In this document: one piece after another, positions 16,629-58,762 of the stretch | Layout of the letters: each line of letters opens with the position of its first letter | How positions within the stretch are numbered: position 1 is the first letter of the stretch | DNA from: an uncultured cyanobacterium | GTDB lineage: Bacteria; Cyanobacteriota; Cyanobacteriia; Phormidesmidales; Phormidesmidaceae | DNA: 64,000 nt | NCBI GenBank assembly: GCA_963793265.1 | Contig: CAWBZI010000004.1 | Span: forward strand, 160,001-224,000 | Reading direction: 5' to 3' | Made by a program: the position numbers and the translations under genes | Notes under the pieces: generated by a model | Database searches by the model: none | The model's input: the letters and a program-made list of their open reading frames with translations, nothing else | Told to the model about the DNA's origin: nothing

Positions 16629-17699
16629 ATGTTAACTACGTCATCGCTCGATCTCAACAGTTTGAAAGCAGGGCTGAAAGAAAGCTTGAAAGAACAGTTA
16701 AAAGAGAACTTTCAGGATAATTCAGCCGCCGCAAGATATGCTACAGAGCTGAGTTTTTTGGCGCATGGTGAGGCGAATGCTATTTTTCGGTTGAGCGATC
16801 AGCAGCTTGTAAGGGTGGCAGTGAATACGCCTAATCAGCGCTTTGATGGGGAGGTGAGTCGGCTAACCGAGTTTGAGCAGGCGGTTTTGCTCTATATAAA
16901 AGGAACGGGCATTGGGCACGAGCTAGCAGCGGCAAAGCTGAGTCCTGATGCCTTATTTCCATATACTTATTTAATTACTAACTATCTGATTGGCCAACCG
17001 CTAGACTACAGCCGTACCCATTTAAGAAAGTGTGCTCATACGCTAGCTCATCTGCATAGGTTGCCACTGGCCGCAGATTATGACGTTGCTCAGCTTGTGC
17101 CGCCGCTGGTGTCTGTCGAGCAGCCGTTACAGCTTTTTTATCAGGAGTCAAAAGATTACGCTCAGCCTTATATTGAATCGACGGGGGCGGATTTGCGGAT
17201 TGTTGAGATGATTGAGGCTTTGTTGGTAAAGGCGCGATCGCACCTACCTGATGCCCAAAGGCTAATCGACTATCCTTATCGCTGCCTGGTGCATAGCGAT
17301 CACACTTACGACAACTGGGTGATCAATCAGCAAAGTGCCTACTTGATTGATTGGGAGTGGGCTGAGGTGGGCTCTCCGGCTGGTGATTTGGGCCACTTTT
17401 TATCGCCTGTGACGATTTGCAGGCGTGAGGGCTATCAGATGCCCGCCGAAGACCGAGCGTTTTTTTTGCGGTGTTATTACGAGGCTTTGGGCGATAGAGA
17501 CTTGGAGATTGCTATCAAACATCATTTTGCTGCGTTTGGCGCGTTTCCGGCGGTGCGATCGCTCTGCTGGACGGCGGGCTACTGGATTACTGCCAATCGC
17601 TGGTACGACGATGGCGAACAGGTCGATCCGAGCGATCGCTATGAACAGTTCAAAAGTCTGTGGCTTTCTGTGATGGACTGGTTAGATGAAGATATTTAA
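16629..17699 (+). CDS. APH/choline-kinase-like phosphotransferase
   Basis: LAHGEAN loop; HSDHTYDNW (HxDxxxxN); IDWEW; overlaps the next gene. Confidence 0.85.
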   Translation: MLTTSSLDLNSLKAGLKESLKEQLKENFQDNSAAARYATELSFLAHGEANAIFRLSDQQLVRVAVNTPNQRFDGEVSRLTEFEQAVLLYIKGTGIGHELAAAKLSPDALFPYTYLITNYLIGQPLDYSRTHLRKCAHTLAHLHRLPLAADYDVAQLVPPLVSVEQPLQLFYQESKDYAQPYIESTGADLRIVEMIEALLVKARSHLPDAQRLIDYPYRCLVHSDHTYDNWVINQQSAYLIDWEWAEVGSPAGDLGHFLSPVTICRREGYQMPAEDRAFFLRCYYEALGDRDLEIAIKHHFAAFGAFPAVRSLCWTAGYWITANRWYDDGEQVDPSDRYEQFKSLWLSVMDWLDEDI

Positions 17700-18588
17700 T
17701 CGGATGCTAGATGAGCGGTGGCGGGCTTATTTGTTACTGCTGCCTGCGCTGAGCTTAGTCGGTCTGTTGTTTGGCGGCGGGCTGGCGCTGGCGTTTTTGC
17801 AGAGCTTGGGTTTGTGGGGGCTGACAGGAGACGGCGTGCTTTCGCTGGCGGCTTATGGCTCGGCGCTAGGGCGTGAGGGATTTTGGCGATCGCTTACCCT
17901 CAGCCTTTACATAGCACTCGTCTCGACTGGACTCTCGACGGTTCTAAGCATTGGCCTGGCGCTGTTGCTGCGCTCGGCGGGGCGGTGGGCGAGTTTTGCC
18001 TGTCAGCTCACGCTGCCGATTCCGCATCTGGTCGGGATTGCAGGGATGTTACTGCTGCTGTCGCCTAGCGGGCTGCTGTCGCGACTGCTGTTTGATTTGG
18101 GGTTAATTCAATCGGATCAGGGCTTTCCGCTGCTGGTGAATGACGGCGCTAATTTGGGTGTGATAATTCTCTTTTTGTGGAAGGAGATTCCGTTTATGAC
18201 GCTGATTTTGCTGGCGGTGCTGCGCGGAATTCGGCCTGAGTATGAGCGTCAGGCGAGAGCGTTGGGGGCGAGCCGGTGGCAGTGCTTTTGGTCGGTGACG
18301 CTGCCGCTGATGAAGCCGGGGATTGTGTCGGCAAGTTTGATTGTGTTTGGCTATGTGTTTGGCTCGTTTGAGGTGCCGTTTTTGCTAGGGGCGACCTATC
18401 CGCAAGCGCTGCCGGTGCTGGTGTATCAGGCGTTTACAAATGTGGACTTGGCGCAGCGGACGACGGCGATCGCCTTAGGTTTATTACTCTCATTTGTCTC
18501 GTTAGCACTTAGCGGGCTTTATTTGTGGCTAGGATCTAAAGATGCGAGTAAACCGTTAAAAAATTCTCTCTTTCAGCAACCATCATGA
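17686..18588 (+). CDS. ABC transporter permease (YnjC/PotB-like)
   Basis: Multiple TM segments; WKEIPF; EAA-like YERQARALGAS. Confidence 0.9.
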   Translation: MKIFNRMLDERWRAYLLLLPALSLVGLLFGGGLALAFLQSLGLWGLTGDGVLSLAAYGSALGREGFWRSLTLSLYIALVSTGLSTVLSIGLALLLRSAGRWASFACQLTLPIPHLVGIAGMLLLLSPSGLLSRLLFDLGLIQSDQGFPLLVNDGANLGVIILFLWKEIPFMTLILLAVLRGIRPEYERQARALGASRWQCFWSVTLPLMKPGIVSASLIVFGYVFGSFEVPFLLGATYPQALPVLVYQAFTNVDLAQRTTAIALGLLLSFVSLALSGLYLWLGSKDASKPLKNSLFQQPS

Positions 18589-19376
18589 CCAAAAATGCGC
18601 TGCTGGGCCTGATCATTAGCGTGCTGTTTCTGCCGTTCTTGCCGCTGCTGATTAGCTCGTTTGCAAACGGCTGGTATTTTCCGCAGCTATGGCCGCAAGA
18701 CTGGACGATGGTGCACTGGCAGGCGGTTTTTTCGACGACTTCTAAGGTGGGAGAGGGATTTTTGCAGAGTTTGGTGATTGCAGCGATCGCAACCGGCCTA
18801 GCCCTAGTCGTAGGGCTACCTGCGGGGCGGGCTTTGGGGCTGATGGATTTTCCTGGTAAGGCTGGGATTAAGCTGTTTTTGCTAATGCCGATTATTGTCT
18901 CGCCGCTGGCGACGCTGATGGGAATTCAGTCGGTGCTGATTCGGTTGGGGCTTAGCGGCACGGTGACGGGCGTGGTGCTGGTGCATTTGCTGCCGATCAT
19001 TCCTTATATGACTTTGGTGTTGAGCAGCGTGTTTGCTAATTTTGATCCAGGGTATGAGGTACAGGCGCGATCGCTCGGCGCATCCCCCTGGCAGGTGCTC
19101 ACTAACATCACGCTACCAATCATTTTGCCGGGCGTAGTAGTAGGCTCACTGTTTGCCTTTTTAATCTCGTGGAATGAGTTTTTGCTGACGTTTTTTGTCG
19201 GTGGCGGTCGGGTGTTTACGCTGCCGATGGTGCTGTTTACGTCGCTTCAAGGGGGGAACAGCGGGCTGACGGCGGCGATCGCGATTACTTCAGTCATACC
19301 CGCGCTGGTTTTTCTGTTGTTCTCTAGCCGGGCGCTGCAAAATGAGGCGGCAATTGGTGGGCTAGGAGACGTGTGA
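18585..19376 (+). CDS. ABC transporter permease (PotC-like)
   Basis: Motifs YEVQARSLGASP and FLISWNEF. Confidence 0.9.
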   Translation: MTKNALLGLIISVLFLPFLPLLISSFANGWYFPQLWPQDWTMVHWQAVFSTTSKVGEGFLQSLVIAAIATGLALVVGLPAGRALGLMDFPGKAGIKLFLLMPIIVSPLATLMGIQSVLIRLGLSGTVTGVVLVHLLPIIPYMTLVLSSVFANFDPGYEVQARSLGASPWQVLTNITLPIILPGVVVGSLFAFLISWNEFLLTFFVGGGRVFTLPMVLFTSLQGGNSGLTAAIAITSVIPALVFLLFSSRALQNEAAIGGLGDV

Positions 19377-20428
19377 TGCAGCTAGCGCTAAAGAATTTAA
19401 GCAAATCTTTTCGGGGTGTGCCTGCAGTTGAGCATCTGTGGCTAGAGATTAAGGCGGGTGAGATTGTCTCTTTGTTGGGGCCTTCGGGCTGCGGTAAGTC
19501 TACGACGTTGCAGCTAATTGCGGGGATTTTGCGGCCTGATGCGGGTCAGGTGGAGCTGGGTGATCGCGTACTTAATCGGGTGCCTCCTGAGCGGCGAAAT
19601 GTGGCTTTGATTTTGCAAAAGGGTCTGTTGTTCCCACATTTAAGCGTGGGAGAGAATGTGGCGTTTGGGCTGAAAATGCGGGGGGTGAATCGGGCGGAAC
19701 GGGAGGAGCAGGCGATCGCAATGCTCAAAAGGGTGCAGCTAGGCGGATTTGCGCACCGGCAGCCGTCTGAGCTTTCGGGCGGGCAGGCGCAGCGGGTGGC
19801 ACTGGCGCGGTCGCTGGTGATTCAGCCAAAGGTTTTGCTATTAGATGAGCCGCTGTCTGCTTTAGATGCTAATTTGCGGGAGGAAATGCAGGGCTTGATT
19901 CTTCAGCTTCAGGCGGAGACGGGCGTGACGCTGGTGATTGTGACGCACGATCAGGCGGAGGCGGTGGTGATGTCTCAGCGGATTGCGCTGATGTTTGAGG
20001 GGCGACTGCGGCAGGTGGCGACGCCCGAGGCGCTTTATCGGTATCCATGCGATGAGGAAACGGCGCGATTTTTTGGCGGGGTGAACTTTTTTACGACTAA
20101 AGCCAAGCAGCGCGAGTGGTGGCTAAATGAACAGACAATGCTGATGAGCGATCAGTCGCTCGAAGGTGATATTCAGGTCACGATTCGCCCGGAACACGTT
20201 CAAGTTTATGCGGCGCGTCCGAGTGAGGCTGACAATGTGCTGATGGCAACGGTCACAGCTAATCGATTCGTGGGCACTCAGCGGAAGCTAACGCTACAGC
20301 TTGCGACCGGGCCACCTTTGCAGGCATGGATCGCGCCTAATCAAACTTTTGCGGTTGGTCAGTCTGTATGGGTGCGCTTACCTGCTGATGGGCTTTGGGG
20401 CTTTCCTGTGACCGAAGGGCTAGAGTAG
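19373..20428 (+). CDS. ABC transporter ATP-binding protein (PotA-like, TOBE domain)
   Basis: Motifs GPSGCGKS, LSGGQ and LLLDEP. Confidence 0.95.
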   Translation: MMQLALKNLSKSFRGVPAVEHLWLEIKAGEIVSLLGPSGCGKSTTLQLIAGILRPDAGQVELGDRVLNRVPPERRNVALILQKGLLFPHLSVGENVAFGLKMRGVNRAEREEQAIAMLKRVQLGGFAHRQPSELSGGQAQRVALARSLVIQPKVLLLDEPLSALDANLREEMQGLILQLQAETGVTLVIVTHDQAEAVVMSQRIALMFEGRLRQVATPEALYRYPCDEETARFFGGVNFFTTKAKQREWWLNEQTMLMSDQSLEGDIQVTIRPEHVQVYAARPSEADNVLMATVTANRFVGTQRKLTLQLATGPPLQAWIAPNQTFAVGQSVWVRLPADGLWGFPVTEGLE

Positions 20429-20474
20429 ATCTCTTCTAACCCTATTTCATCTGTCCATTTTCTTTTAAAGCCTA

Positions 20475-21761
20475 ATGTCAAATATTTCTAAACATCGCTA
20501 TCCAATTACGCTACCTCGTCGCCAGTTTGTTGCGCTTTCAACAGCGGCTTTTTTAGGTGCGATCGCCACAAGCTGCACCAACCGTTCCACCTCATCTACT
20601 TCAGAAGATCTAGATCTTAGCACCGCAAGCTGGGACGAGATTGTTGCACAAGCCCAAGGAACCACCGTCAACTGGGCCATGTGGGGCGGCAGTGACAACA
20701 TTAATGCCTACGCCGACGAATGGGTTGCTGAGCAGCTCAAGAGCCAGTACGATGTGACGCTCAATCGTGTGCCGATTAACGACACGGTAGAAGCGGTGAA
20801 CAAAGTTGTAGGCGAAGTTCAGGCCGGGCTTAATAGCGGCGGCAGCATCGATCTCATTTGGATCAACGGAGAGAACTTTCGCACGCTAAAGCAGGGCAAT
20901 TTACTCTTTGGGCCTTTTACCGACAAGCTCCCGGCGATGGCCGCTTATGATCTGGATAATCCGGCGGTGCTCTCGGACTTTGGCTTGCCCACGGACGGCT
21001 ACGAAGCGCCTTATACCGGGGCCTACTATCTGATGGTGAAAGACAGCGCTAAGGTTCAGCAAACGCCTGAGACGTTTGATGCGCTGCTGGAATGGGCGAA
21101 AGAGAATCCGGGCCGATTTACCTATGCCGCGCCGCCTGCTTTTGACGGCAGCCGCTTCTTGCTGACGGTGCTCTATGGGGTGACAGGTGGCTATGAGCAG
21201 TATGCGGGCGCGGAATTTGATGAGGCGCTGTGGGCTGAGAAGTCGCCGCTGGTGGTGGACTATTTGGAGTCGCTAGAGCCCTATCTGTGGCGCAGGGGTA
21301 GAACGTATCCACCCTCGCAGGCACGGCTGAATGAGCTGTTTGCAAACGGTGAAATTTGGATGATGCCCGCGTTTGTTTCACAGATTGTAGAGGCCAAAAC
21401 GAACGGACAGTTTCCAGATACGGCTGAGGCGTTTGCAATGCCGGGTGCTTCTTTGAACGATCCTTCGTTCACGGCGATTCCGGTGAATGCGAGCAATCCG
21501 GCAGGGGCAATGGTGCTGGCCAATGTGCTCTCTAGTCCTGAAGGGCAGCTTGAGAAGTTTAAGCCGCAGGTGTGGGGCGATCCGCCGCTGCTGGCGGTGA
21601 GTAAGGTGCCGCCTGATTTGCAAAAGGAATTTGCGCAGGTGGAGGCTGATTATGGGGTGCCGCTGAAGGATCTGGTGGCGGATGTGGTACCGGTTGCCAA
21701 TGCCGAATATACGACTCGGCTAGAAACGCTTTGGAAAGAGAAAATTGCTACAACCAGTTAG
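20475..21761 (+). CDS. ABC substrate-binding lipoprotein, YnjB-like, with Tat signal
   Basis: RRQF twin-Arg and lipobox ATSC; motifs WGG..NINAY, DLIWINGENF, AKENPGRFTY and NASNPAGAMVLAN. Confidence 0.88.
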   Translation: MSNISKHRYPITLPRRQFVALSTAAFLGAIATSCTNRSTSSTSEDLDLSTASWDEIVAQAQGTTVNWAMWGGSDNINAYADEWVAEQLKSQYDVTLNRVPINDTVEAVNKVVGEVQAGLNSGGSIDLIWINGENFRTLKQGNLLFGPFTDKLPAMAAYDLDNPAVLSDFGLPTDGYEAPYTGAYYLMVKDSAKVQQTPETFDALLEWAKENPGRFTYAAPPAFDGSRFLLTVLYGVTGGYEQYAGAEFDEALWAEKSPLVVDYLESLEPYLWRRGRTYPPSQARLNELFANGEIWMMPAFVSQIVEAKTNGQFPDTAEAFAMPGASLNDPSFTAIPVNASNPAGAMVLANVLSSPEGQLEKFKPQVWGDPPLLAVSKVPPDLQKEFAQVEADYGVPLKDLVADVVPVANAEYTTRLETLWKEKIATTS

Positions 21762-21801
21762 AAAATCTTAGAATTAAAGACCACTGGAGATACCTGTCTA
21801 T

Positions 21802-22632
21802 ATGGCTTTTAAAGAACGTGAGAGTCGCGATCGCGGCGTCATTGAGAACAACCGTTTGATGGAACTGCATCTTTATCCTGGCAACCGATGCAATCGAGAC
21901 TGTGATTTTTGTACGGTGTTTGGTACGCCAAAGGGTGACTATATTGCTTATGAGGCGGCGCATTTAGACGCGGCTTTGCGCTCTGTGATACTGAATGATC
22001 AAGGGGCGATTAAGTTTTATGGGGGTGAGCCGACGCTGGATCATCAGAATGTGATTTGGGCGATTTCTTATTTGCGCGATCACGATTTCACAGGCGCAAT
22101 TGTGATCTACTCCAACGGCATTCGCGCTGAGCAGCTAATTGAGGTTCTAGAATCTGATTCGCTAGGGAAAACAACCGCCTCACTTAATTACTCAATTGCC
22201 ACAGGAGACGGCGCGCCGCAGATGCCGCTAAAGGCTTTGAAGCGACTGGAAGACTATGAGGAAATGCACGAGGGAGCGATCGCAATCGGTCACCCTGACA
22301 TCGTGGACTCAGGTCGCGGCGTCGATCCGTTTACCGGCGAAGAAACCCGCCCCAAAGTTAACTCCACCTGCCCCCACTGCTACCCCGTACTCAAAAGCGA
22401 CGGCCAGTTTCACGCCTGCCCGTTTGCCATCGAAAACGACTCCCCCCACTTCCAGCTAGGCGACATCAACACGCCGCCTGCTGAAGTCGCCCAAAACTTT
22501 GACGCCTTCTTCGAGTGGCTTGACACTGTTCATCAGCCCTACGCCGAAGCCCACGAACTGCCCGCCTGCACGGTCTGCTGGAAACATTTACACGAACTAC
22601 CTGTGCCCAGAGGAATTCCTGTAAATGCTTAA
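21802..22632 (+). CDS. Small radical SAM enzyme with a C-terminal Cys cluster (twitch/SPASM-like)
   Basis: CNRDCDFC (CxxxCxxC); YGGEP; C-terminal CPHC...GQFHACP...CTVC. Confidence 0.88.
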   Translation: MAFKERESRDRGVIENNRLMELHLYPGNRCNRDCDFCTVFGTPKGDYIAYEAAHLDAALRSVILNDQGAIKFYGGEPTLDHQNVIWAISYLRDHDFTGAIVIYSNGIRAEQLIEVLESDSLGKTTASLNYSIATGDGAPQMPLKALKRLEDYEEMHEGAIAIGHPDIVDSGRGVDPFTGEETRPKVNSTCPHCYPVLKSDGQFHACPFAIENDSPHFQLGDINTPPAEVAQNFDAFFEWLDTVHQPYAEAHELPACTVCWKHLHELPVPRGIPVNA

Positions 22633-24595: not shown

Positions 24596-25252
24596 TTAGA
24601 CGTACATTTCTAGTTCTCGTACAGTCTGAATGGTTTCACCGCTGGCTTCATCATTGGTCTTAGGGGGTATTGGTGCGCTATCTGAGCCAGTGCTAACAGA
24701 ATCTACTGCCTGAAGGGTAGGCGAAGCGAGTCGTTTGCCGCCTAACACCGCCGGTATATCTAGCAATAGAAGCGTGTGAGAATTACCGTGTAAATGGTAC
24801 GTGACCACATGAGAGATCCATCGCAGCGCCCGAGCCAATCGCTTTTCGTGTGGCACGGGTTTAAGCGCGTAGTTAGGCATATCAATCAAGTCTGGAGGCT
24901 CGTTTAAGGCAATTCCCCAGAATTCCCCATCAGTGTCGCGCAGCACCAGCAAAAAGGGCGGATTTTGATCGCCCGTTTGCCCTTCAGACTGCGAGGGGCG
25001 ACTGGCTGGCGGAAGTAGCTTATGTAACTCAATTATCTGAATGCTGTACGGCCCTAGCTGTACTAATCCCATGCTAACTAATCCCCCCTGATTGGGCGGT
25101 GGGGTGGCCACTACTTTCAAAATACCTGCGCTGGGCAGTGCTAACAGATGCCCTGACACCTTGAAGGTGATGTACTGCTTTACTTCAGCAGATTTGCGGG
25201 CGGCAGCTTCAAATTCTTGTTGAGAAATGCTCTGGGTGGCGATATTATTCAT
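24596..25252 (-). CDS. CheW-like protein (second CheW of the taxis operon)
   Basis: YITFKVSGHLLALP; overlaps the cheA stop. Confidence 0.75.
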   Translation of the reverse strand: MNNIATQSISQQEFEAAARKSAEVKQYITFKVSGHLLALPSAGILKVVATPPPNQGGLVSMGLVQLGPYSIQIIELHKLLPPASRPSQSEGQTGDQNPPFLLVLRDTDGEFWGIALNEPPDLIDMPNYALKPVPHEKRLARALRWISHVVTYHLHGNSHTLLLLDIPAVLGGKRLASPTLQAVDSVSTGSDSAPIPPKTNDEASGETIQTVRELEMYV

Positions 25253-28200
25253 AAGGGCGCTCCCGCTGTACTGGCTCTTACTGCACTCGCTCTTACTGCA
25301 CTGGCTCCTACTGTATTGGCTCCTACTGTACTTAGAGAAGCTTGAGGAGAGACTTGAGGCAATGTTTGGAACTGACTTTCGATAGCCTCAGCAACGGTTT
25401 GAAGAAGCTGGGGCGTGAGGTAGGGTTTGGTGAGGTAGGCTGTAGCGCCAAGATTTTCGGTGAGCGAGCGATGCTTCGTACCGGCTCTTGATGTCAGCAT
25501 AATCGTTGGAATTGAGGCAATTTCTGGTCGCTGCTGGCGTACTTTTAAAAATTCAAAGCCGTTCATCCCAGGCATCTCAATATCACATAAAATAGCTTGA
25601 ACATCCGGGTATCGCGCTAGCTGCTGAAGAGCTTCTGCGCCGTCTTTGGCTTGAATAACCTGATAGTTAACGCGCTGTAGCGCATCTGCCAAAGCATCGC
25701 GCACTGTGATCGAATCGTCTACCGTCAAAATCAGCTTTTTAGCAAAAACGGGTTTCTGCGAAGCGCTGGCGATTTGAGATGAATGGCGATTTGAAGCATT
25801 TGCACTCGCGTCATCTCCTTTTTGCTGACGGTGCTGCGTTGAGACTACTTTTGCAAGTACTGTGCTATCGAGCACTAGGGTCAGTTGTCCATTTGGCAAA
25901 ACGCTGCTGCCGTATAGATAATCAGGCGGTGAGAGAGTTGTGCTCAATGGGCTGATGACTAGCTCCTGTTCGCCTAGCAGCTCATCGACTTCTAGGCCAA
26001 CTAGCGTATCGCCATGGCGCAGTAGCACGAGCGGAGATGAGATGCCTGAGTGAGTATCAGCAGTGAGAGGGGTTCGATGCTCAGGTAAAGACGAGGTATG
26101 AGGCAAGACCCGATCTAGCGTGCTAACAGGAATAAGATACTCCTGCTCGCTAGTTTGCCAGGTCAAGGTCTTGCCGCCCTCCCACACCCACATCTGCTCT
26201 AGTGTGGGCCTCAAAATATGCTCAATAGCTTCTGTCATCAGCGCATAAGTGCGATCTTTTACCCGACACAGCAGCATTTTAGCGATGCTCGTGTGGGTAG
26301 GAATTTTAAGCGTAAAGCAGGTGCTAACGGCAGGAACATAGCTGACGGCGGTTTCTCCTTGCAGCGATCGCACCCTGGCTCTAACGGCATCTAGCCCCAC
26401 CCCTCGGCCCGATATGCTATCAATATCGCCAGCCGTCGAAAACCCTGCTTCAAACAGCAAATCAGTCGTTTGCGAAAGCGTTAAGGTAGCCGCCTCAGCA
26501 ACGGTGATAAGCTGACTTTCGATGGCCTTAGTGCGAATGATCTCAAGGTCTAGCCCCTGCCCATCGTCTTTGATCGTAATGACGACATAGCGACCTTGCT
26601 GAGCGCCCGCGATGGTAATACGGCCAGCGGCAGGCTTGTTCTGGTCAATTCGTTCTTCAGGAAATTCTATGCCATGGTCAAACGCATTCCGTACAAGGTG
26701 TAGCAGTGGCTCATAGAGCTGATCGACAATCGCTCTATCTACCAAAAATTCGCCGCCTTCTATCACGACTTCAACCTGCTTACCATACTCGCCACAAAAC
26801 TGTGCCTGGAGCCGCGATACCGCAGCAGGCAGCCGCTGAAAGACCTGTCTTAAAGGCACCATTCTGGCAGTGAGCAGGGTTTCACGAGTATTTGCTAACA
26901 GCCGCTTTTGTCTGTCTAATGCTTGCTCCGAGCGCTTGACAAACAGTTCAATGGCATCGACACTTTCTGATTGCTGAATGCTCTCTTCTAAGCAAGACTG
27001 CACCAATAGCTGAATATCGTTGTACTGGTCTAGCTCCAAGGTATCAAATTGAGCATACGAGATGGCATTTGAGCTTGCAGCAGGCGTTGGTTTTGCTTGG
27101 AGATGGTCTGATGATGCTCGCGCAAACGATGCTTGGATGACGGTGCGATCGCGATACTGATTGAGCTGCCGCTGCTGCTGCAAAATGCGGTTTGACAGCT
27201 TTTTAACGAGCGCTGATAGCTGTTCGTTGTAGAGGGTTTGACGATTCTGCTGGGTGAGTAATTCACCCATTGCCTGAGAGAGCTGCTGCAGATGTTGGGC
27301 GCTCACGCGCGTTGTTATACGACGACTGCTTGAGGCTGAGGTATCTGCTGGGATATTGCCCGGCTGGCGAGGCTGCTTTTGCCGACTAGAACTGTTCCTT
27401 TCTGAAGCAGGCAGATTTAAAGCAGGCAGATCGTCTGTAAAAAGAGACGGATCGCCTGCAAACGGTGATGAGTCCTCCATTTCGCTATCTTCTAGCTGGA
27501 TAGCTGAAGATTCTACTTCAGCAATTACTGGCTCTGTAGAGGTAGCAACGTTTTCATGCTCATCGCTGTCGGCGGCGTCCTCTACAGATGCGATGGGTTG
27601 AGATAGCTGACCTACAGAGTGATCGCGCGGCTGTTCGCTTTGAGCGGATTTCCCAATGGGGTGAGTCAGTAGCTGCCACGGACGTTTAATCCAGCTACCT
27701 TTACGCTTTTTTCTAGCTTGAGCGTCTGCTTTTTCAAGTAGCGCCTGGCGAGAAGAAAAGCCGCAAAGCTGTTGCAGTGCAGCCGAAGGCACTCCACCTT
27801 GGGTGCGATCGCCCCCCAGCACGTCTGCTTTAGCCGCACAAAAGTTCTCTAGCGCGGCTTGGGCAATTGCCAAAGTCCGCTCTGGATGCTCTGTTAGTCC
27901 GTCTAACGTAATCTGGGCGATCTCTTGAAAGCCAGGCAAATCCAAAGATTCAGCTAGGCCAATAAAGACTTCTGCCTGACTCTTTAAAAGATCGCTCAGC
28001 GCAGCTAAATCGGGTTCTTCTAGCGCTTCTGAGAGTAACGTTAGTCGCTGGCTGACGCCTACTTCAAAGATAGATTGAGTCAGATCAAACCCTAGCTCGC
28101 TAGATGTTGGTATATGCCCCTCTTGGCCAAAGCGAGCGCCTAGCATCGCTTGGAGCTGACTGACCACCGCTGCCATCCGGTCTAGAATGTCCGACTCATC

Positions 28201-28539
28201 TACTTTTGATCCTTCTAGCTGCGCGGACATCAATAGCTGCAAGCAGTCATACCCATCGAAAATAAGCCGCTCCATCTCTACGCTCACATCTGTGTCCTGA
28301 TGACACAGCGCCTTAAAAATACTCTCTAAGGAGTGCGTTGTTTTGGTCACCGCATCTAGGCCGACGCTGGCAGATGCACCTTTTAAGGTGTGTGCCGCAC
28401 GCATGAGCGTATGCACCTTTTGAGGGCTAAAGTCTGATCTGAGATCTTGCAGTTCATCCCCCATCGTTTGTAGAAGCTCAGTTGCTTCTTGTTCAAAGTA
28501 CCGATAGGTTTGTTCAGAAACACGGCTGTCTGTCATCAT
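25249..28539 (-). CDS. cheA: CheA-like hybrid kinase (Hpt-HATPase-CheW-REC), PixL-like
   Basis: Motifs RAAHTLKG, HLVRNAFDHGIE and GRGVGLD; C-terminal receiver domain. Confidence 0.93.
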   Translation of the reverse strand: MMTDSRVSEQTYRYFEQEATELLQTMGDELQDLRSDFSPQKVHTLMRAAHTLKGASASVGLDAVTKTTHSLESIFKALCHQDTDVSVEMERLIFDGYDCLQLLMSAQLEGSKVDESDILDRMAAVVSQLQAMLGARFGQEGHIPTSSELGFDLTQSIFEVGVSQRLTLLSEALEEPDLAALSDLLKSQAEVFIGLAESLDLPGFQEIAQITLDGLTEHPERTLAIAQAALENFCAAKADVLGGDRTQGGVPSAALQQLCGFSSRQALLEKADAQARKKRKGSWIKRPWQLLTHPIGKSAQSEQPRDHSVGQLSQPIASVEDAADSDEHENVATSTEPVIAEVESSAIQLEDSEMEDSSPFAGDPSLFTDDLPALNLPASERNSSSRQKQPRQPGNIPADTSASSSRRITTRVSAQHLQQLSQAMGELLTQQNRQTLYNEQLSALVKKLSNRILQQQRQLNQYRDRTVIQASFARASSDHLQAKPTPAASSNAISYAQFDTLELDQYNDIQLLVQSCLEESIQQSESVDAIELFVKRSEQALDRQKRLLANTRETLLTARMVPLRQVFQRLPAAVSRLQAQFCGEYGKQVEVVIEGGEFLVDRAIVDQLYEPLLHLVRNAFDHGIEFPEERIDQNKPAAGRITIAGAQQGRYVVITIKDDGQGLDLEIIRTKAIESQLITVAEAATLTLSQTTDLLFEAGFSTAGDIDSISGRGVGLDAVRARVRSLQGETAVSYVPAVSTCFTLKIPTHTSIAKMLLCRVKDRTYALMTEAIEHILRPTLEQMWVWEGGKTLTWQTSEQEYLIPVSTLDRVLPHTSSLPEHRTPLTADTHSGISSPLVLLRHGDTLVGLEVDELLGEQELVISPLSTTLSPPDYLYGSSVLPNGQLTLVLDSTVLAKVVSTQHRQQKGDDASANASNRHSSQIASASQKPVFAKKLILTVDDSITVRDALADALQRVNYQVIQAKDGAEALQQLARYPDVQAILCDIEMPGMNGFEFLKVRQQRPEIASIPTIMLTSRAGTKHRSLTENLGATAYLTKPYLTPQLLQTVAEAIESQFQTLPQVSPQASLSTVGANTVGASAVRASAVRASTAGAPL

Positions 28540-28577
28540 ACGAGGGGCTAACGCTAGGTGATTTGAGATAAAAGAGG

Positions 28578-31463
28578 CTAAACCTTGAACTGGGTTGTGC
28601 TAGTCTGAAGCGCCTCGGCGGTTTCTAGCACCTGCTGAATAGATCCTGCGAGATGATGAGAACTATCAGAGGTTTGATTGGCAATCTCTGTCGCTTCAGT
28701 CATAGCCCGCGTTACGACCTTAAACTCACTGGCCTGCTGGTGAGTGGTTTGGGTAATATGGCCAATGAGCTGGCTGATCTCTTCAGTGGCTTTGACAATA
28801 GCCGTCAGATTTTGGCGAGCGTCGCTGACGAGCGTTGTTCCGGCTGCGACCTGCTGAATGCCAGTCTCCATTGCCGTCGAGACTTCAGCCGTACCCGTCT
28901 GAATTTCTTGCACAAACTGTTCAATCTCAGTGGCGGCTGCCGCCGACTGTCGGGCGAGCGATCGCACTTCATCGGCGACAACAGCAAATCCTCTGCCATA
29001 CTCTCCGGCCCGCGTTGCCTCAATTGAGGCATTTAGCGCCAGAAGCTGCGTTTGAGTCGTAAAGTGACTGATCAAACTCACGATTTTAGAAACCTTTTGC
29101 GAAGACTCGCTCAGTCGCTTAATGCGCTGGTTAGTTTCAGCGACCGTTGAGCGAATAGCCACAATCCCGTCTACTGTTCGGTTCATCGCACCGTCTCCTT
29201 TCTGCATGGTGCGGCTAGCCTGTCGCGCTGCGGTTTCTACCCGCTGCGCATCTCGGGCCACCGTTTCAGTCGAAACCACCATTTTTTGAATGAGAATTAG
29301 CGCCTGCTCTAGCGCCTGCGCCTGCTGCTGCGCCTGCTGAGTAACCGACTGGGCAGAGGTTTCGCTCAGCCGAGACGTTTCACCCACCTGGTCTGCGGCT
29401 ACCTGCACCTGGCTGACAATTTTTTGCAGGCTTTGTAGGGTGTTGTTGTAGGCACTAGCGACCGTACCGACTTCTGTTTCAGTGACTTGCGCCCGTACGG
29501 TCAGATCGCCTTTTAAGGCGGGGCCAACCGCTTTCAAAAGCTGAATGACCTGCTGCTGGAGTAGCTCTTTAGAGGCTTTTTCGCGGTTAGCTAGCTCTGT
29601 GAGCTTAGTCGTTTTGTCCTGCACCTGCTCTAAATATTCAGCCTGCTGCAGCGCCAGGTTTAGCTGAGCGCCAATGCGGTGTGCAAACTGTACGTCTGCT
29701 TCTGTCCACTCGCGAGGGCCGGTGCATTGATGAATAGCAAACAGACCCCACAGCACGTCGCCTACTAGCAGGGGCACCACAATACTGGCTTTTACCTGTA
29801 GCTCGCCCAGCAGCTCAATAAGACAGTAGCTGACATCTAGTTCGGCGATGTCATTGACAACCCAGTAGCGACCTTTGCGGTAGTTCTCGGCTTGCTCCTC
29901 AGCAAAGCAGTGATCTTGTACCTTAGCAGCCATCGCTGAGCGAACACCGACCGCCACATCTTCAACGACAAACTCACCCACGCTGTAGTTTTTCGTGGCG
30001 TCCATCTGAAACAGCCCTACTCGGTCGGCGGCTAGCAGGTGGCGAATATCTTGCACCGTTGCTCTGAGCGCTCTGGGTAATTCTTTGGTGCTACGCAGTC
30101 GTTCGGCAACTTTCGTAATCAGTTGCTCTCTGGCTACAGCGTCTTCAAGCTGCTGGTTAGTCGCTTGGATTTGGCCCAGATAGTCTGCCTGCTGCATGGC
30201 CAAATCAAGCTGGGCCGCAACCCGCCGCACAAAGGCTATTTCTAAGGCTTGCCACTGACGCGGCTCGGCGCACTGGTGAATACAAAACAGGCCCCATAGC
30301 TGATTGTCTTTCAGCATAGGAACGACAAGATTAGCTTTCACCTGAAACTGATCGAGCAAGTCAACGTAGCACTCAGGAATGCCTGCGTTGTGAACGTCAT
30401 CGATTGTCGAAATCCTGCCCTGCCGGTAGGCTTCAGCCATCGAATTGCTAAAGCAGTGATCTTCAACAACAATTTCTTTGGCTGAGACAAAGGCAGGGTT
30501 GACGCTTTCGGCAACCACTTCGCCCTGGGTATAGCCGCTCTCTGGCAAGAACTGAAAGACGGCGACGCGATCGCTCTTTAAAAAGTTCCTGAGCTTTCTT
30601 GCCGTTGACTCAAACACCTCAGAAAGATTCGAGAGTTCGCGAACGTTTTGAATGACGGTTGCGAGGGTTTCTCCACGGGCAATTTCTTGCTGGCTCTGCT
30701 GTTCTAGCCTGTATGTTTGCTGCCTGAGCGCAATATCTGAGGCGACTTGATGGAGAAAGGCAACTGTTTGCTCATCCCAAGATCTGCTCTTATCACACTG
30801 CTGAACCACGAGCAGTCCCCATGGCTGGCCGACTGTAACAATGGGCAGGCTCAAGCTGGCCTGTACCTGAAAACGCTGTAAAATCTGCATCTGATGAGGA
30901 GAAACAGCCTCCTCGCTAGCATTTGAGAGCGCGATAGGTTGCCCCTGATAGTCACTGGCGTTAGCAGCACCGAAAGCGATCGCATCGAAACTCTCTCCTA
31001 GCGTGGGCGTATAGCCTGCTGTGACAGACTCAGCGATGACGCTACCGGCTGATGGCATTGCGAACTGATAGACAAGAGCGCGATCGCATCGAAACTGCTT
31101 GCGAAGCGCAGAAACTGCAATTTGATAGAGATTTTCTGGCGTAGTCGCCTGATCCATCTGCCCGGCAATATCGAACGTCTCAAAGAGCGATCCTGGCTGC
31201 GTTCTATGCGCAGCAGTCATAGGCTCGTAGGCTGAGGCTGAGGCTATATCTGGTTCGCGTAATGGCTCATCGGATATCTCTTCTGGCAGGTGCGGAGCCT
31301 TTCCACTATCATCACCGCTGTCACCGTCGCCGCTGTCGTCGCTATCTCTCTCTAGAACGCTCGTGGCAATATTTCCATTGAGAGAGTGTTGCGCTAAGTC
31401 ATCAGCATCAACAAGATCGTTTGTAGCGTCGTAATCGTTTGTAGCGTCGTAGTTCATAGTCAT
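28578..31463 (-). CDS. pixJ: GAF-containing methyl-accepting photoreceptor (PixJ-like cyanobacteriochrome)
   Basis: Three GAF domains, two with DHCF; MCP hairpin [31 protein letters not shown]. Confidence 0.88.
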
Positions 31464-31554
31464 AGTGAATGTCTAAATACGTTGGGATCGGGAATATAAA
31501 AAAGATAGAAACTTACTATTTTGTTCGCTGCTATCTGCCAGCTTATCTGCCAGC

Positions 31555-32238
31555 TTATTTGTCAGCTAAGGTGCGATCTTGCCGAAGTGACGATTCGAAA
31601 ATAGCGGCAACACTCAGAACCGTTCCTCCCTGCTGGGGGCAATATCCCAGCACAAAAGGCTCCAGGCTAGGCGGACACAAGCCGGTTTCCATATAAATTT
31701 GCTGCTCGTCAAATAAATCAATATCGCCAACCTGTTCTACAACGAGTCCTAACGCGTGACCCGAAAACTGAACCACAATGCTGATAGGCGGCTTCGCAAT
31801 CTGAGAGGGTTGAAATAAGGGCTCGTAGCCAACTAAATGATTGAGATCTACCAGCCAAAGAGTTTCGCCCTCCCATCCACATACGCCCAATACGCAATCA
31901 GGCATATCAGGCACTGGAAAAATATCTTCTAGTGATAGCTGGACAACTTCTGTAATTTGATCGAGTGGTAGTAACGCACTGCTCTTTTGCGAAAGCATAA
32001 ACCGCAGATATTTTTGACGAGTATCTGCTGCAATAGGAGCTAGCCCGAGAGGGTCTAACTGATAATGACCTGGCTGATTGTGATCTAACTGGTTGCTAGA
32101 TAGGCCAAGTGGCAGCATTGCGAAGTCGGCGTCAAGCTTTGTATGTGTCTTTGTCTCAATAGCCTTTGTTTCAATAGTCTTTGTCTTAGTCACAGTCACG
32201 TTCACTCTTTCTTCTGGCTTTTGTCTGTTCTGCTGCAT
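31555..32238 (-). CDS. CheW protein (PixI-like; start uncertain)
   Basis: Motif IFPVPDMPDCVLGVCGWEGETLWLVDL. Confidence 0.88.
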   Translation of the reverse strand: MQQNRQKPEERVNVTVTKTKTIETKAIETKTHTKLDADFAMLPLGLSSNQLDHNQPGHYQLDPLGLAPIAADTRQKYLRFMLSQKSSALLPLDQITEVVQLSLEDIFPVPDMPDCVLGVCGWEGETLWLVDLNHLVGYEPLFQPSQIAKPPISIVVQFSGHALGLVVEQVGDIDLFDEQQIYMETGLCPPSLEPFVLGYCPQQGGTVLSVAAIFESSLRQDRTLADK

Positions 32239-32306
32239 CTGTTCTGCACTCCATCTACTTTTATAGGCGTTTTATAAACGACGACTCTCTATATGCAATG
32301 GGTTTT

Positions 32307-32669
32307 CTAAGTAATAATCTGTGCAACCGTTTGCTCAATTTGCTGCAGGTTAATGGGTTTAGTGATGTAGGCATCTGCACCTAGCATTGAGCCCCACAGC
32401 CGGTCAGCCTCGGTACTCTTAGTTGAACAAATCACAATGGGAATATTCTGAGTGCTCTTATTTGTCTTTAAACTATGACAAAACTCAAAGCCACTTTGTC
32501 CGGGCAAAACAACGTCTAAGAAAACCATGTCTGGATGCCTTTCTTGCAGCATTTGCTGAGCTTCTTCGCTACTTTGGGCGCTCGTGACAATGATGCCTGC
32601 CTGCCTCAAATAGCCAGTTAAAATCTCTCTGTCAATCAGACTATCTTCTACAATTAAGGCAGTTGGCAT
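32307..32669 (-). CDS. Single-domain CheY-like response regulator (PixH/PilH-like)
   Basis: Motifs LIVEDS, FLDVVLP and YITKP. Confidence 0.92.
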   Translation of the reverse strand: MPTALIVEDSLIDREILTGYLRQAGIIVTSAQSSEEAQQMLQERHPDMVFLDVVLPGQSGFEFCHSLKTNKSTQNIPIVICSTKSTEADRLWGSMLGADAYITKPINLQQIEQTVAQIIT

Positions 32670-32761
32670 AGTTACTATCGGTGCTGTGAATGTAGTGTTA
32701 CGAAGCGAAAGAATCTGCTTAGGTTTAATTGCGAACCCCAAACGATGAAGTTTTGGACTCG

Positions 32762-33973
32762 TTAGGTACCTCTTGACAGGTGTTTTTTGACGACTTTTTC
32801 AACCTTCTCTGACCTGATTGGCTTGCCGATAAAACCAGAAGCACCCGCAATCTTTGCTCTGACGCGATCGGCAATACCATCATTACTCGTGACAATAACG
32901 ACTGGCGTATTCTTTAAAGCAGAAACGCGGCGAATTTGAGCGCAAACCTCATAGCCGTTAGCTGTTGGCATGACCAAATCTAAGAAGATTAGCTTGGGTT
33001 TAGACTCGATTAGTGCAGGCAGCGCCTGTATAGGATTAGGAATATTGGTATACCGATAGCCTAAGTCTTTTACAATCTCAGACATTGCTCTGCTGTCTGT
33101 TAGGCTGTCGTCAATGTAGGCAATTCCAGGGGCTTGGCGATATACTTTGGTCGGCAAATTAATCTCACCTGAGCCTACATTTGCCGGTTTGGTCTTCGCA
33201 GCTCCAGTTTCTGATGAGAACGCTAGTAGCTGTCGGGAGACATAGGGTAATATTGACTTTGTAAAAGGGATGAGCGGCACTCGAAACTTAGCAGATAGAT
33301 CCCTGAGCGTATTTTCACCATTTACATGCCCAATCAGAGCTTGAAAGCTTTGGGCTGATACCTGCGTTCTCAAAGCTTCGAGCTGAATGATGGATAGCAC
33401 ATCGTTCGGAGAATATTCAGAGAGATTAGCCTGGTTCCAGTCCTGCCATTCCCGCTGCGCGTACTGCCAGGCTTGCCCATCTTGAAGCATGATTAAAGAT
33501 GGACTAAGACGTTCGCTAGACTGAACTTGGCAAGTAAGCGGACAAGTAGAACGCCCGGATGTTTGCCCATGCTGCGCCGCGCTAGCTTGCAACATATCGA
33601 AGAGATCTTCAGCAATGCAGCTCTTAACAATCTGATAGAACCGATCGCGGCGAAACTGTCCTAGCCTAACTAGGCGAGACAATGCGTCGTAGTTCCATGA
33701 TGCGTAAGGCCGCTCTCCTTTTTGAGCGACTTGACTAAAAAAAATAGGATTATACGCTGCTAGATGCCTTTGCCATCGCCGTCGAGACTGTGCTTTAGAC
33801 TGTGCTTGCGACTGTATCCATGCGATTTGGCCCAGTAAGTATAGAACGTACCACTCATTATCCGAGGCTTCACTACCCTGGCAACTGACCCTTACAGAGC
33901 CCGTAAACCTTTGTTGGTAGCAAGCTTGTATGTTGTCTGCTAAATCAAAAAATGTGGTGCTACTATCAAGCAT
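32762..33973 (-). CDS. PatA-family response regulator (PixG-like)
   Basis: PATAN-like N-terminus plus C-terminal receiver (IDDS, FLDLVMP, KP); first gene of the taxis operon. Confidence 0.88.
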   Translation of the reverse strand: MLDSSTTFFDLADNIQACYQQRFTGSVRVSCQGSEASDNEWYVLYLLGQIAWIQSQAQSKAQSRRRWQRHLAAYNPIFFSQVAQKGERPYASWNYDALSRLVRLGQFRRDRFYQIVKSCIAEDLFDMLQASAAQHGQTSGRSTCPLTCQVQSSERLSPSLIMLQDGQAWQYAQREWQDWNQANLSEYSPNDVLSIIQLEALRTQVSAQSFQALIGHVNGENTLRDLSAKFRVPLIPFTKSILPYVSRQLLAFSSETGAAKTKPANVGSGEINLPTKVYRQAPGIAYIDDSLTDSRAMSEIVKDLGYRYTNIPNPIQALPALIESKPKLIFLDLVMPTANGYEVCAQIRRVSALKNTPVVIVTSNDGIADRVRAKIAGASGFIGKPIRSEKVEKVVKKHLSRGT

Positions 33974-34180
33974 AGACAAACGTTTGTTGGTTCGTAAGAG
34001 CAACCGTGCGGCCTCTTTATTAAGAAACAATTTCTAAGGAACAGTTCTCAATAGAAATAGTTGCAGATGCGCAACACTTCTATGGAGAGTTGTGGAGAGT
34101 CGGTTAAAGATATTGATAGTTAATGGGAAAATACTAATCGGAAGGGGATAGTCGAAAGGTTTTGCAGCGCTGCTGACTAT

Positions 34181-57140: not shown

Positions 57141-57827
57141 TTAGTGCTTCACTGATCGCCGCTGGATCAATAGCGGCAACGCTGAAAGCAGCATGAGGAC
57201 AACCAGGCAGCAGAACAAAGGCAATAGGTCGCCGCTGCTAAGTGCTTCAGCGCCTGTGACGCCTAGCCAGGTGTATGCCAGCGTACCAGGAACGATGCCG
57301 ATGAGCGTTCCGAGCGCATAGGCTCTAATCGAGACAGGCGTAAGCCCTAAAGCAAAGTTAACGACGTTAAAAGGGGAGACGGGGGAGAAGCGAATGAGTA
57401 GTATGCAGCCTAAGCCCTGGGTGCATAGCGTTTCGTTTAGCTTTTTGAATAGGGGGCGATGGGCGAACTTTTTTTGGAAGCGATCGCGCATCAGATACCG
57501 CGCCACCCAAAACGCGCCAATAGCCCCCATCGTCGCGCCGATAGCAGAAAGCACGGTGCCCCACCAAATGCCATACACCGCGCCGCCGACGACAACCAGC
57601 AAAGTGCCAGGTACGCCAATAGTGTTGGCGATAGTGTGCGCTGCTAGAAATAGCAATACGCTGCGGACAGGCGAGGTGTCTGCGCTCGAAAAAAACTGGA
57701 TGAGCGTTTGGCGGTTGAAGATGAGAGCTAGCGATCGCCCAATAGCTGCCCAGCCAATAAGGCTCCCGCCTACGACAATAATGAATGTCAGCAGGCAGAA
57801 GCCCCAGAATTTTCGATTGAATTTCAT
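57141..57827 (-). CDS. TVP38/TMEM64 (DedA/SNARE-associated) membrane protein
   Basis: Motifs GVPGTLLVVVGGAVYG and IRFSPVSPFNVVNFALGLT. Confidence 0.9.
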   Translation of the reverse strand: MKFNRKFWGFCLLTFIIVVGGSLIGWAAIGRSLALIFNRQTLIQFFSSADTSPVRSVLLFLAAHTIANTIGVPGTLLVVVGGAVYGIWWGTVLSAIGATMGAIGAFWVARYLMRDRFQKKFAHRPLFKKLNETLCTQGLGCILLIRFSPVSPFNVVNFALGLTPVSIRAYALGTLIGIVPGTLAYTWLGVTGAEALSSGDLLPLFCCLVVLMLLSALPLLIQRRSVKH

Positions 57828-57897
57828 AAGTTAGCGATCGCGAAAGGCGCTGCGTGAAGCCGCTAGCGCCTCTGTGAAGTCTTCAGGTGTAGAGTTT

Positions 57898-58713
57898 TTA
57901 GACTACATCTGCGGGCGTTTTTTCCGCTTCTGGAACTGCCTCATTAAGCGCCTTTTTAGCAATTTTAGCGATATAGAGCGATATCGCCACAATGGTCACA
58001 AGAACCAGAATGCGGATAATCCAGCCAATAACGACTTCTTGAGGAGAGGCTGTGGTCGTTTCTTGACCGATCATAGCCACATCACCCACAAGCGAGCCTA
58101 AGTAAACGTACATGATGGTGCCGGGAATGATGCCGGTGGTTCCTAATACGTAATCTTTGAGAGAGACTTTTGTTAGGCCGAGCGCGTAGTTGAGCAGGTT
58201 GAATGGAAACGCAGGCGAAAGGCGAATTAAGAAGATGAGCTTCAGACCTTCTTCGGCAATTGAATTGTCTAGTGAGTTGAAGAAACGGTTGCCTTCTACC
58301 TTTTTAGCAATCCAGTCGCGAGCAATAAATCGTCCGATTAAGAAGGCGGCGGTTGCGCCAATCATTGCGCCAACAAATACTAGAAGCGAGCCGATATAAA
58401 CGCCAAAGATAGCGCCTGCGCCTAAGGTAATAACAGAAGCTGGTAAGAAGGCAACAGTGACAATTACATAGCCGATTAAAAAGACAATGTATTTAATCGA
58501 GCCTAAATTATCAATCCACTGAAGCGCATTGCCAAGCTGATCTTGCAGTTGAGAGAATATTGCAAAAGGCCCAGAAGCTTGAGCGGCACCTTCTTGCGCC
58601 CAGGCTGGGCCAACGGCTAAAAGTAGACTGCCCAACAGCGCGAACAACAAAATTTTAGTGACTTGCCGGACGCGTTTGGGCAAAAGAGAGAATAGAAACT
58701 CAGGAAAGCTCAT
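57898..58713 (-). CDS. TVP38/TMEM64 (DedA/SNARE-associated) membrane protein
   Basis: Motifs FLPASVITLGAGAIFG and IRLSPAFPFNLLNYALGLT. Confidence 0.9.
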   Translation of the reverse strand: MSFPEFLFSLLPKRVRQVTKILLFALLGSLLLAVGPAWAQEGAAQASGPFAIFSQLQDQLGNALQWIDNLGSIKYIVFLIGYVIVTVAFLPASVITLGAGAIFGVYIGSLLVFVGAMIGATAAFLIGRFIARDWIAKKVEGNRFFNSLDNSIAEEGLKLIFLIRLSPAFPFNLLNYALGLTKVSLKDYVLGTTGIIPGTIMYVYLGSLVGDVAMIGQETTTASPQEVVIGWIIRILVLVTIVAISLYIAKIAKKALNEAVPEAEKTPADVV

Positions 58714-58762
58714 GAGAAAATCCTTTAGAGAACAAAGAGAAGATGAACTAGGAAAAACAAAC

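Follow-up and report, generated by a model that had tools for sequence, protein, structure and literature searches.

The 64,000-nucleotide stretch analysed here (the window; contig CAWBZI010000004.1 of an uncultured cyanobacterium of the Phormidesmidaceae, positions 160,001 to 224,000) contains, at 16629–22632, an operon for a kinase, a YnjBCD-like ATP-binding cassette (ABC) importer, and a radical S-adenosylmethionine (SAM) protein, hereafter rSAM. The six genes form one real, conserved module. Judged by its sequence, the rSAM belongs to a family of twitch type that has no name and is distinct from ArsS, and the whole is apparently an undescribed, conserved variant of an arsenosugar-type system. 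We give a probability of roughly 0.55 to the reading that the operon would bypass ArsS and, fed by uptake, serve as an entry branch to the pathway of TIGR04282, TIGR04283, and DUF547 proteins. The block is probably a second way into that pathway, fed by uptake, because relatives of the rSAM adjoin arsenosugar genes and occur where ArsS is missing. The original prediction had described an operon that imports a small molecule, traps it by phosphorylation, and remodels it by radical chemistry, and gave no pathway; the present analysis ties the operon to the network of ArsS, TIGR04282, TIGR04283, and DUF547.

Organization and conservation of the six-gene module

The six genes, all on the forward strand, encode an APH-fold small-molecule kinase of 356 amino acids from an unnamed family (16629–17699), ABC permease A, which corresponds to the N-terminal half of a YnjC-like permease (17686–18588), ABC permease B (18585–19376), an ABC ATPase with a TOBE domain (19373–20428), a YnjB-family substrate-binding lipoprotein with a twin-arginine signal (20475–21761), and the rSAM of 276 amino acids (21802–22632). 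The coordinates of the open reading frames confirmed the co-directional arrangement originally described, with overlaps of 14, 4, and 4 bp followed by gaps of 46 and 40 bp. A promoter and terminator scan of the operon gave results no better than those with shuffled sequence, and no RNA holder was listed.

To assess conservation, we used a genome scan for rSAM relatives, from which the best 80 of 177 were kept, and defined as close loci the 64 with an rSAM at least 53% identical to that of the window. All five upstream genes were present in 33 of the 45 genome loci having at least 5.7 kb of upstream sequence, the remaining 12 having at that place no kinase, an incomplete transporter, or no transporter, and the binding-protein gene was present in 55 of the 64 close loci. 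These counts indicated that the six-gene block is not a chance arrangement. A failure of the kinase and rSAM to accompany the transporter in other genomes, which the original prediction had named as evidence against itself, was not observed: the rSAM, YnjB, and the kinase were each found in 27/121 genomes of the cyanobacterial order, the window's genome included, and these were the identical 27 genomes, even where the loci were split (G217, G248, and G258). By record name, close relatives were Phormidesmis and other filamentous cyanobacteria, and cultured strains such as Leptolyngbya sp. Heron Island J and Nodosilinea sp. LEGE 07298 carried the operon. A sample of 200 further genomes of the phylum did not contain the rSAM, and it was not found in plasmids.

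Several loci showed variant arrangements. The kinase adjoined the rSAM with no transporter in L049 and L053. In a Coleofasciculus locus (L046), the kinase and rSAM stood behind an ArsR gene, a porin, and a phosphonate-type ABC system, and in L063 a different ABC system and a split phosphoenolpyruvate (PEP)-synthase-like dikinase preceded the rSAM; therefore, the pairing of this rSAM with uptake and phosphorylation recurs with different parts. The gene order in L046 (1533-11447) was thioredoxin, CcdA/DsbD, thioredoxin, ArsR, porin O/P, PhnD-like, PhnE, kinase, rSAM, rhodanese, and PhnC, and CcdA and thioredoxin also flank the ArsS cluster of Acinetobacter. L050 had an MTAP-like phosphorylase gene after the rSAM and yielded no kinase, its assembly having N gaps upstream. 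An ArsR-family gene lay upstream of the operon in 11 loci, with a C-terminal Cys-Cys pair in 10 of them; such pairs in ArsR-type regulators have an As(III)-sensing role. In three Leptolyngbya-like loci (L007:10074-12412, L014, and L015), a metallophosphoesterase-like gene and a gene for a 477-residue membrane protein with no Pfam match lay directly behind the rSAM, and in Phormidium tenue FACHB-886 (L022:7249-8496) the binding-protein gene had the opposite orientation to the other operon genes. Flanking Nudix (3/64 loci) and RidA (5/64 loci) genes do not belong to the module, and the neighbours EgtB/EgtC, Nudix, RidA, and GlmU were set aside as lineage-local.

The rSAM matched Pfam Radical_SAM (PF04055) with 34.1 bits (cut-off 29.5) as its only Pfam family, and no NCBIfam model passed its cut-off. 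It thus falls in no curated family, and membership in a characterised family of unrelated role, which the original prediction had also named as evidence against itself, was not observed. Its cysteines are arranged as CxxxCxxC at residues 30–37, C190/C193, G201-C206-P207, and C256/C259. The CxxxCxxC and GGE motifs were invariant in 28/28 aligned rows, as were the five C-terminal cysteines C190, C193, C206, C256, and C259 and the residues Y25, R32, K71, N129, and E211; the cysteine pattern C...GxxxxC...CxxC occurred in 50/50 rows picked for the phylogenetic tree. Four of the C-terminal cysteines would bind one auxiliary cluster, with one cysteine left spare. The structural model (pLDDT 80) had a short, partial barrel of five strands and four helices followed by a twitch-like domain, and its top fold matches were SPASM/twitch enzymes, in keeping with a C-terminal cysteine set for one auxiliary cluster. 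The nearest folds were EpeE, ChlB, anSME, and BtrN, tied at Z scores of 9.5–10.5 (Foldseek was also run); with four such enzymes tied, no function can be read from the fold. ESM Atlas matches consisted only of generic, mostly viral rSAM clusters.

The identity of the rSAM with ArsS was examined in two ways and rejected in both. There was no match to the ArsS model TIGR04167 (cut-off 300 bits) at E ≤ 0.01, and profile comparison by hhalign against 15 ArsS rows gave 91% in local mode over 82 columns of the SAM core and 6% in global mode. ArsS also has five conserved C-terminal cysteines. In a midpoint-rooted tree of 50 rows, some of them on long branches, the rSAM family was divided into three main groups: cyanobacterial or kinase-linked, DUF547-fused, and stand-alone. 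Neither a description of this rSAM nor a substrate for YnjBCD was found in searches of the accessible literature.

The binding protein matched NF008633/PRK11622 with 456.7 bits against a cut-off of 203, the sole NCBIfam model listed for it, and was 37% identical to E. coli YnjB. With the sequence RRQF followed by a lipobox-like cysteine, it bore out the description as a twin-arginine translocation (Tat) lipoprotein of YnjB type; the twin-arginine motif was present in 28/28 homologues with a readable N-terminus and a strict lipobox pattern in 18/28. Both permeases matched PF00528, permease A being syntenic in relatives and permease B 27% identical to E. coli YnjC, and the ATPase matched PF00005 and PF08402 and carried Walker A, LSGGQ, and LLLDE motifs. 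Membership in PotABCD or ThiBPQ was rejected, because every Pot and Thi model fell below its cut-off and the binding protein listed NF008633 only. The binding-protein model (pLDDT 91) had a type-2 binding-protein fold. Its fold matches showed at most 17% identity, with no solved relative by sequence, and binders of maltose, glycerophosphocholine, and polyamines and STM0429 lay within about 2 Z units of one another.

The kinase matched Pfam APH (PF01636) with 41.1 bits (cut-off 23.2) and contained the motifs HSDHTYDN and DWE; H-x-D-x4-N and DWEWAE were kept in 22/22 aligned kinases. The Pfam score and the HxDxxxxN/DxE motifs identified it as an APH/choline-kinase-like phosphotransferase. It was not identified as MtnK, since no methylthioribose kinase was matched at E ≤ 0.01 in NCBIfam or at E ≤ 1 among Protein Data Bank sequences. 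Longer proteins yielded no fusions of the kinase, a negative of little weight.

Linkage to the TIGR04282/TIGR04283/DUF547 network and distribution relative to ArsS

According to the accessible parts of the sources, ArsS makes 5′-deoxy-5′-dimethylarsinoyl-adenosine (DDMAA) from trivalent dimethylarsenic, DMAs(III), by joining an adenosyl radical (PMC13598754, PMC8552651), ArsS acts together with ArsM in the first steps of the pathway (PMC8552651), and later steps are proposed to proceed via adenine loss to free arsenoribose, for an algal lipid (PMC10456119). Distant members of the rSAM family were fused to an N-terminal DUF547 domain, and a DUF547 match was present in 14/14 distant genome loci and 63/80 metagenome loci. 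The latter were obtained by scanning metagenomes with eight distant members as seeds, a scan from which 80 of 197 loci were kept (554,696 bp). TIGR04282 or TIGR04283 was encoded in 10 of these 80 loci, against approximately 0.2 expected by a rough estimate that takes each family as single-copy in a 5-Mb genome. Seven of the ten exceeded the hidden Markov model (HMM) cut-off, L169, L173, and L183 having been detected by BLAST only, and four (L165, L169, L173, and L178) were close kin. TIGR04282 or TIGR04283 also adjoined the rSAM in L040, L051, L052, G382, and G387, so the linkage spans all three rSAM groups. Outside the cyanobacteria, the rSAM was found together with YnjBCD in L183, L188, and L192, with TIGR04283 following in L188 and L192; L201 contained permeases only before the contig end. 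The grouping of these non-cyanobacterial rSAM-YnjBCD loci with the cyanobacterial group as a single clade was rejected only at an approximately unbiased test p value (p-AU) of 0.033, for a group named after the first tree had been seen.

By linkage and fusion, the rSAM family belongs with the arsenosugar-type network; in the window's genome, the network genes lie elsewhere. That genome encodes ArsM (576.9 bits, cut-off 400), ArsS, TIGR04282, TIGR04283, and DUF547, with DUF547 beside TIGR04283 and TIGR04282, and in the annotated ArsS cluster of Acinetobacter used as a control, DUF547 likewise lay between ArsS and TIGR04283. The ArsS gene of the window (TIGR04167, 417.5 bits, cut-off 300) is on the reverse strand at 58763–59806, outside the operon and about 36 kb away, and is followed by two DedA/VTT-like open reading frames (57141–58833, reverse strand); the same contig linkage was seen in G212. 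A further cluster of the window, at 24596–34030 on the reverse strand, looks chemotaxis-like by sequence, with CheW, CheA, a GAF-containing MCP, CheW, CheY, and a PatA-like gene. In the DUF547 region (L085, G000:C7:210894-213596), TIGR04283, DUF547, a rhodanese-like gene, and TIGR04282 stand on alternating strands beside a UbiG-like methylase, and the arsenosugar-type ArsM (L207, G000:C1:21569-23716) lies beside ArsR and an aquaporin-like gene. In L165, L169, L173, L178, and L116, a TIGR04282-TIGR04283 fusion protein was encoded divergently from the DUF547-rSAM fusion. Plasmid matches to TIGR04283 were from Burkholderia in 47/50 cases, including B. glumae and B. thailandensis, and the 50 plasmid records did not overlap with the YnjB records listed.

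For the distribution relative to ArsS, 121 genomes were analysed from the class to which G323 (record title Candidatus Binatia) belongs, G323 itself having been chosen as an rSAM carrier; one search of this class scored only 20 candidates per genome. TIGR04282 was found in 112/121, ArsS in 93/121, and the operon-type rSAM in 11/121. ArsS was present in 1/11 rSAM carriers versus 92/110 non-carriers, and TIGR04282 in 11/11 carriers. Of 20 genomes with TIGR04282 and without ArsS, 10 carried the operon-type rSAM.

YnjBCD clusters of other bacteria were compared in 13 YnjB neighbourhoods, comprising that of E. coli K-12 and a further 12 chosen among 78 plasmid records so as to be diverse. CDP-alcohol phosphatidyltransferase was encoded in eight of them, DedA/TVP38 in five, nucleoside hydrolase in two, DUF547 in two, and DUF2064 (TIGR04282 below cut-off) with a different orphan rSAM in one. 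Two marine gammaproteobacteria had YnjBCD clusters sharing accessory genes with the ArsS cluster; both had a TonB receptor and a phosphatidyltransferase, and ArsS was shown in neither. In Catenovulum, the TVP38/FAD oxidoreductase, DUF547, and desaturase were 60, 45, and 44% identical, respectively, to those of the ArsS control, and a TonB receptor, YnjBCD, and a phosphatidyltransferase took the place of the control's ArsS, methyltransferase, and two transferases. Such a difference in layout would be expected for salvage versus synthesis. The neighbourhood with DUF2064 was that of a Chondrinema plasmid (L209:2945-11806), where a TonB receptor and YnjBCD were also encoded; the Cys-rich rSAM behind YnjBCD there (315 amino acids, no NCBIfam match) represents a second unnamed family, its hhalign value of 68% covering the core only. 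The glyceraldehyde-3-phosphate dehydrogenase beside YnjB in Aliiroseovarius was not of the ArsJ-associated type (265 vs 450 bits) and was discarded as evidence for arsenic. A block of DedA, FAD oxidoreductase, YnjBCD, and phosphatidyltransferase occurred on many enterobacterial plasmids (L091, CP063738.1), several of them from cattle or milk.

Proposed role and competing explanations

In the mechanism that we propose, the cargo of YnjBCD would be either a methylarsenical precursor or an arsenic-bearing riboside that is already formed and has a free hydroxyl, the likeliest candidates for the riboside being glyceryl dimethylarsinoyl-riboside and the sugar fragment of it. The APH kinase would trap this cargo by phosphorylation, in the simplest case to a 5-substituted ribose-1-phosphate, which TIGR04282 may then activate and TIGR04283 transfer, as the names of their models (CofC-like and MftF-like) suggest. 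No homologue of YnjF was found in the window's genome with two queries, which fits a kinase route into TIGR04282 and not direct lipid attachment. Provision or repair of the arsenic-ribosyl unit would fall to the rSAM, with no need for ArsS. ArsS-like formation of a C–As bond, with a SAM-derived radical acting on a different arsenical, is slightly favoured because of the complementary distribution with ArsS; the alternative, favoured by the rSAM fold, would be oxidation or epimerisation of the sugar as in BtrN or EpeE, with use of the fifth cysteine.

Several observations weigh against an ArsS-independent, uptake-fed branch for arsenosugars. NCBI annotates the TIGR04282/TIGR04283/DUF547 pathway as arsenosugar biosynthesis, and the assignment to arsenic comes from family names and from the published chemistry of ArsS; in the accessible parts of the literature, demonstrated roles were found for ArsM and ArsS only among ArsM, ArsS, and TIGR04282/04283. 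The cyanobacterial carriers have ArsS in 26/27 cases (background in the order 115/121, which makes this co-occurrence uninformative as evidence), so the branch here would be additional and not a replacement. ArsS was also present in 3/17 other non-cyanobacterial rSAM carriers, and its exclusion in the class of G323 comes from related, partly incomplete genomes, for which a Fisher p of ~1e-6 is an overstatement. ArsM showed no pattern in that class (5/11 carriers vs 43/110 non-carriers), and the co-occurrence of TIGR04282 in 16/17 non-cyanobacterial carriers was dropped against its background of 112/121. The parts of the operon proved less inseparable than the original prediction implied, YnjB being found in 0/11 and the operon's kinase in 0/5 of the DUF547-fused rSAM carriers tested, of another class, and other transporters or another kinase type being used in L046 and L063; import, trapping, and remodelling would be a plausible role. 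Among the 13 YnjB neighbourhoods, neither ArsS nor TIGR04283 was listed, and that of S. meliloti listed no informative neighbour; E. coli has YnjBCD and no ArsS, TIGR04282, or TIGR04283 over cut-off. The modelled binding-protein fold does not separate ligand classes, sugars versus polyamines included. An upstream ArsR with a Cys-Cys pair was absent at the window's operon, and the closest homologue in the window's genome of the ArsR found in relatives heads a Pst-like operon. This homologue has a C-terminal Cys-Cys pair, and its operon (G000:C2:380594-384384) is PstSCAB-like.

The same network might instead handle an arsenic-free compound, a riboside or lipid head group such as a sulfur, selenium, or nitrogen analogue, with arsenosugars as a side activity; we regard this as possible, although the odds are clearly against it. 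The wide occurrence of YnjBCD, which E. coli, Bacillus, Deinococcus, Sinorhizobium, and clostridia all have and which is frequently accompanied by lipid enzymes, the near-universal TIGR04282 of the class of G323, and the lack of recurrent ars efflux genes beside the operon in the loci read all argue for it. The upstream ArsR genes and their Cys-Cys pairs argue against it, as does the complementary distribution of the rSAM and ArsS, whose product DDMAA is established in the accessible part of PMC13598754.

A catabolic module, in which organoarsenicals would be imported and phosphorylated and the rSAM would cleave the C–As bond or rearrange the sugar for carbon or phosphorus, is unlikely in our view. 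Import with a kinase is a common catabolic layout, and the patchy occurrence of the operon in genomes that already have ArsS, the Coleofasciculus locus with its porin and phosphonate-type transporter under ArsR, and the Pst-like operon headed by the ArsR homologue are consistent with this explanation. No aldolase, isomerase, ArsI, or efflux gene was recurrent in the loci read, however, and the rSAM is a neighbour of TIGR04282/04283, the presumed enzymes of activation and transfer, and is found where ArsS is absent. An ordinary importer of polyamine, thiamine, or iron type with an unrelated kinase and rSAM as neighbours is very improbable: although the ATPase and permeases scored best against Pot/Phn/Mod models, all below cut-off, PotD was among the binding-protein fold matches (Z 26.6), and the kinase weakly matched thiamine kinase (25.6 bits), the binding protein passed the YnjB model only, the kinase, YnjB, and rSAM were co-inherited in the same genomes, and the rSAM-YnjBCD pairing recurred in a separate rSAM clade, to the extent that the p-AU given above separates it.

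The uptake-fed entry branch would have consequences beyond this operon. YnjBCD, an orphan transporter that occurs even in E. coli K-12, would gain its first candidate class of ligands, and the rSAM would be a candidate for a new family of radical SAM enzymes at the start of the arsenosugar and arsenolipid pathway, for whose later steps only proposals were found in the accessible part of PMC10456119. A salvage route would change the view of organoarsenic cycling in mats, soils, and seawater. A bolder version, in which the rSAM is a new C–As bond-forming family displacing ArsS in several phyla and YnjBCD an arsenosugar importer, is tentative, and we doubt it more than we believe it. If it were true, many bacteria unable to make arsenosugars would scavenge them into membrane lipids via YnjF, and these cyanobacteria would bring scavenged arsenosugars into lipids via the kinase and TIGR04282/04283.

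Comparison with known systems

The operon resembles the ArsM-ArsS pathway in having an rSAM with a Cys-rich C-terminal part and the same companion genes adjacent or fused. It differs in that its rSAM comes with an importer and a kinase and has no ArsM beside it; with respect to ArsS, the operon-type rSAM is largely mutually exclusive in one class and coexists in cyanobacteria. The E. coli system (ydjXYZ-ynjABCD-ynjE, with ynjF) shares the binding-protein family NF008633 at 37% identity, whereas the operon here has a split permease, a TOBE ATPase, and a Tat lipoprotein signal, and a kinase and rSAM instead of the DedA, AhpD, and YnjF of E. coli.

The twitch enzymes BtrN and SpeY (dehydrogenases) and EpeE (an epimerase) have a short barrel and a twitch-like domain in common with the rSAM model. 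EpeE aligned with the model at Z 10.5 (rmsd 3.9, 221 residues) and BtrN at Z 9.5 (rmsd 4.3, 185 residues), but the identity to these enzymes was only 12–18%, and the CxxC pair of the rSAM gives a fifth cysteine whose position was matched to no known H-donor. MtnK is an APH-fold kinase whose product is a 5-substituted ribose-1-phosphate. The salvage route of MtnK and methylthioadenosine (MTA) phosphorylase is similar to the operon in that an APH-fold kinase is proposed to make such a product; the rSAM of L050 has an MTAP-like gene behind it, and MTAP is encoded inside the ArsS control cluster.

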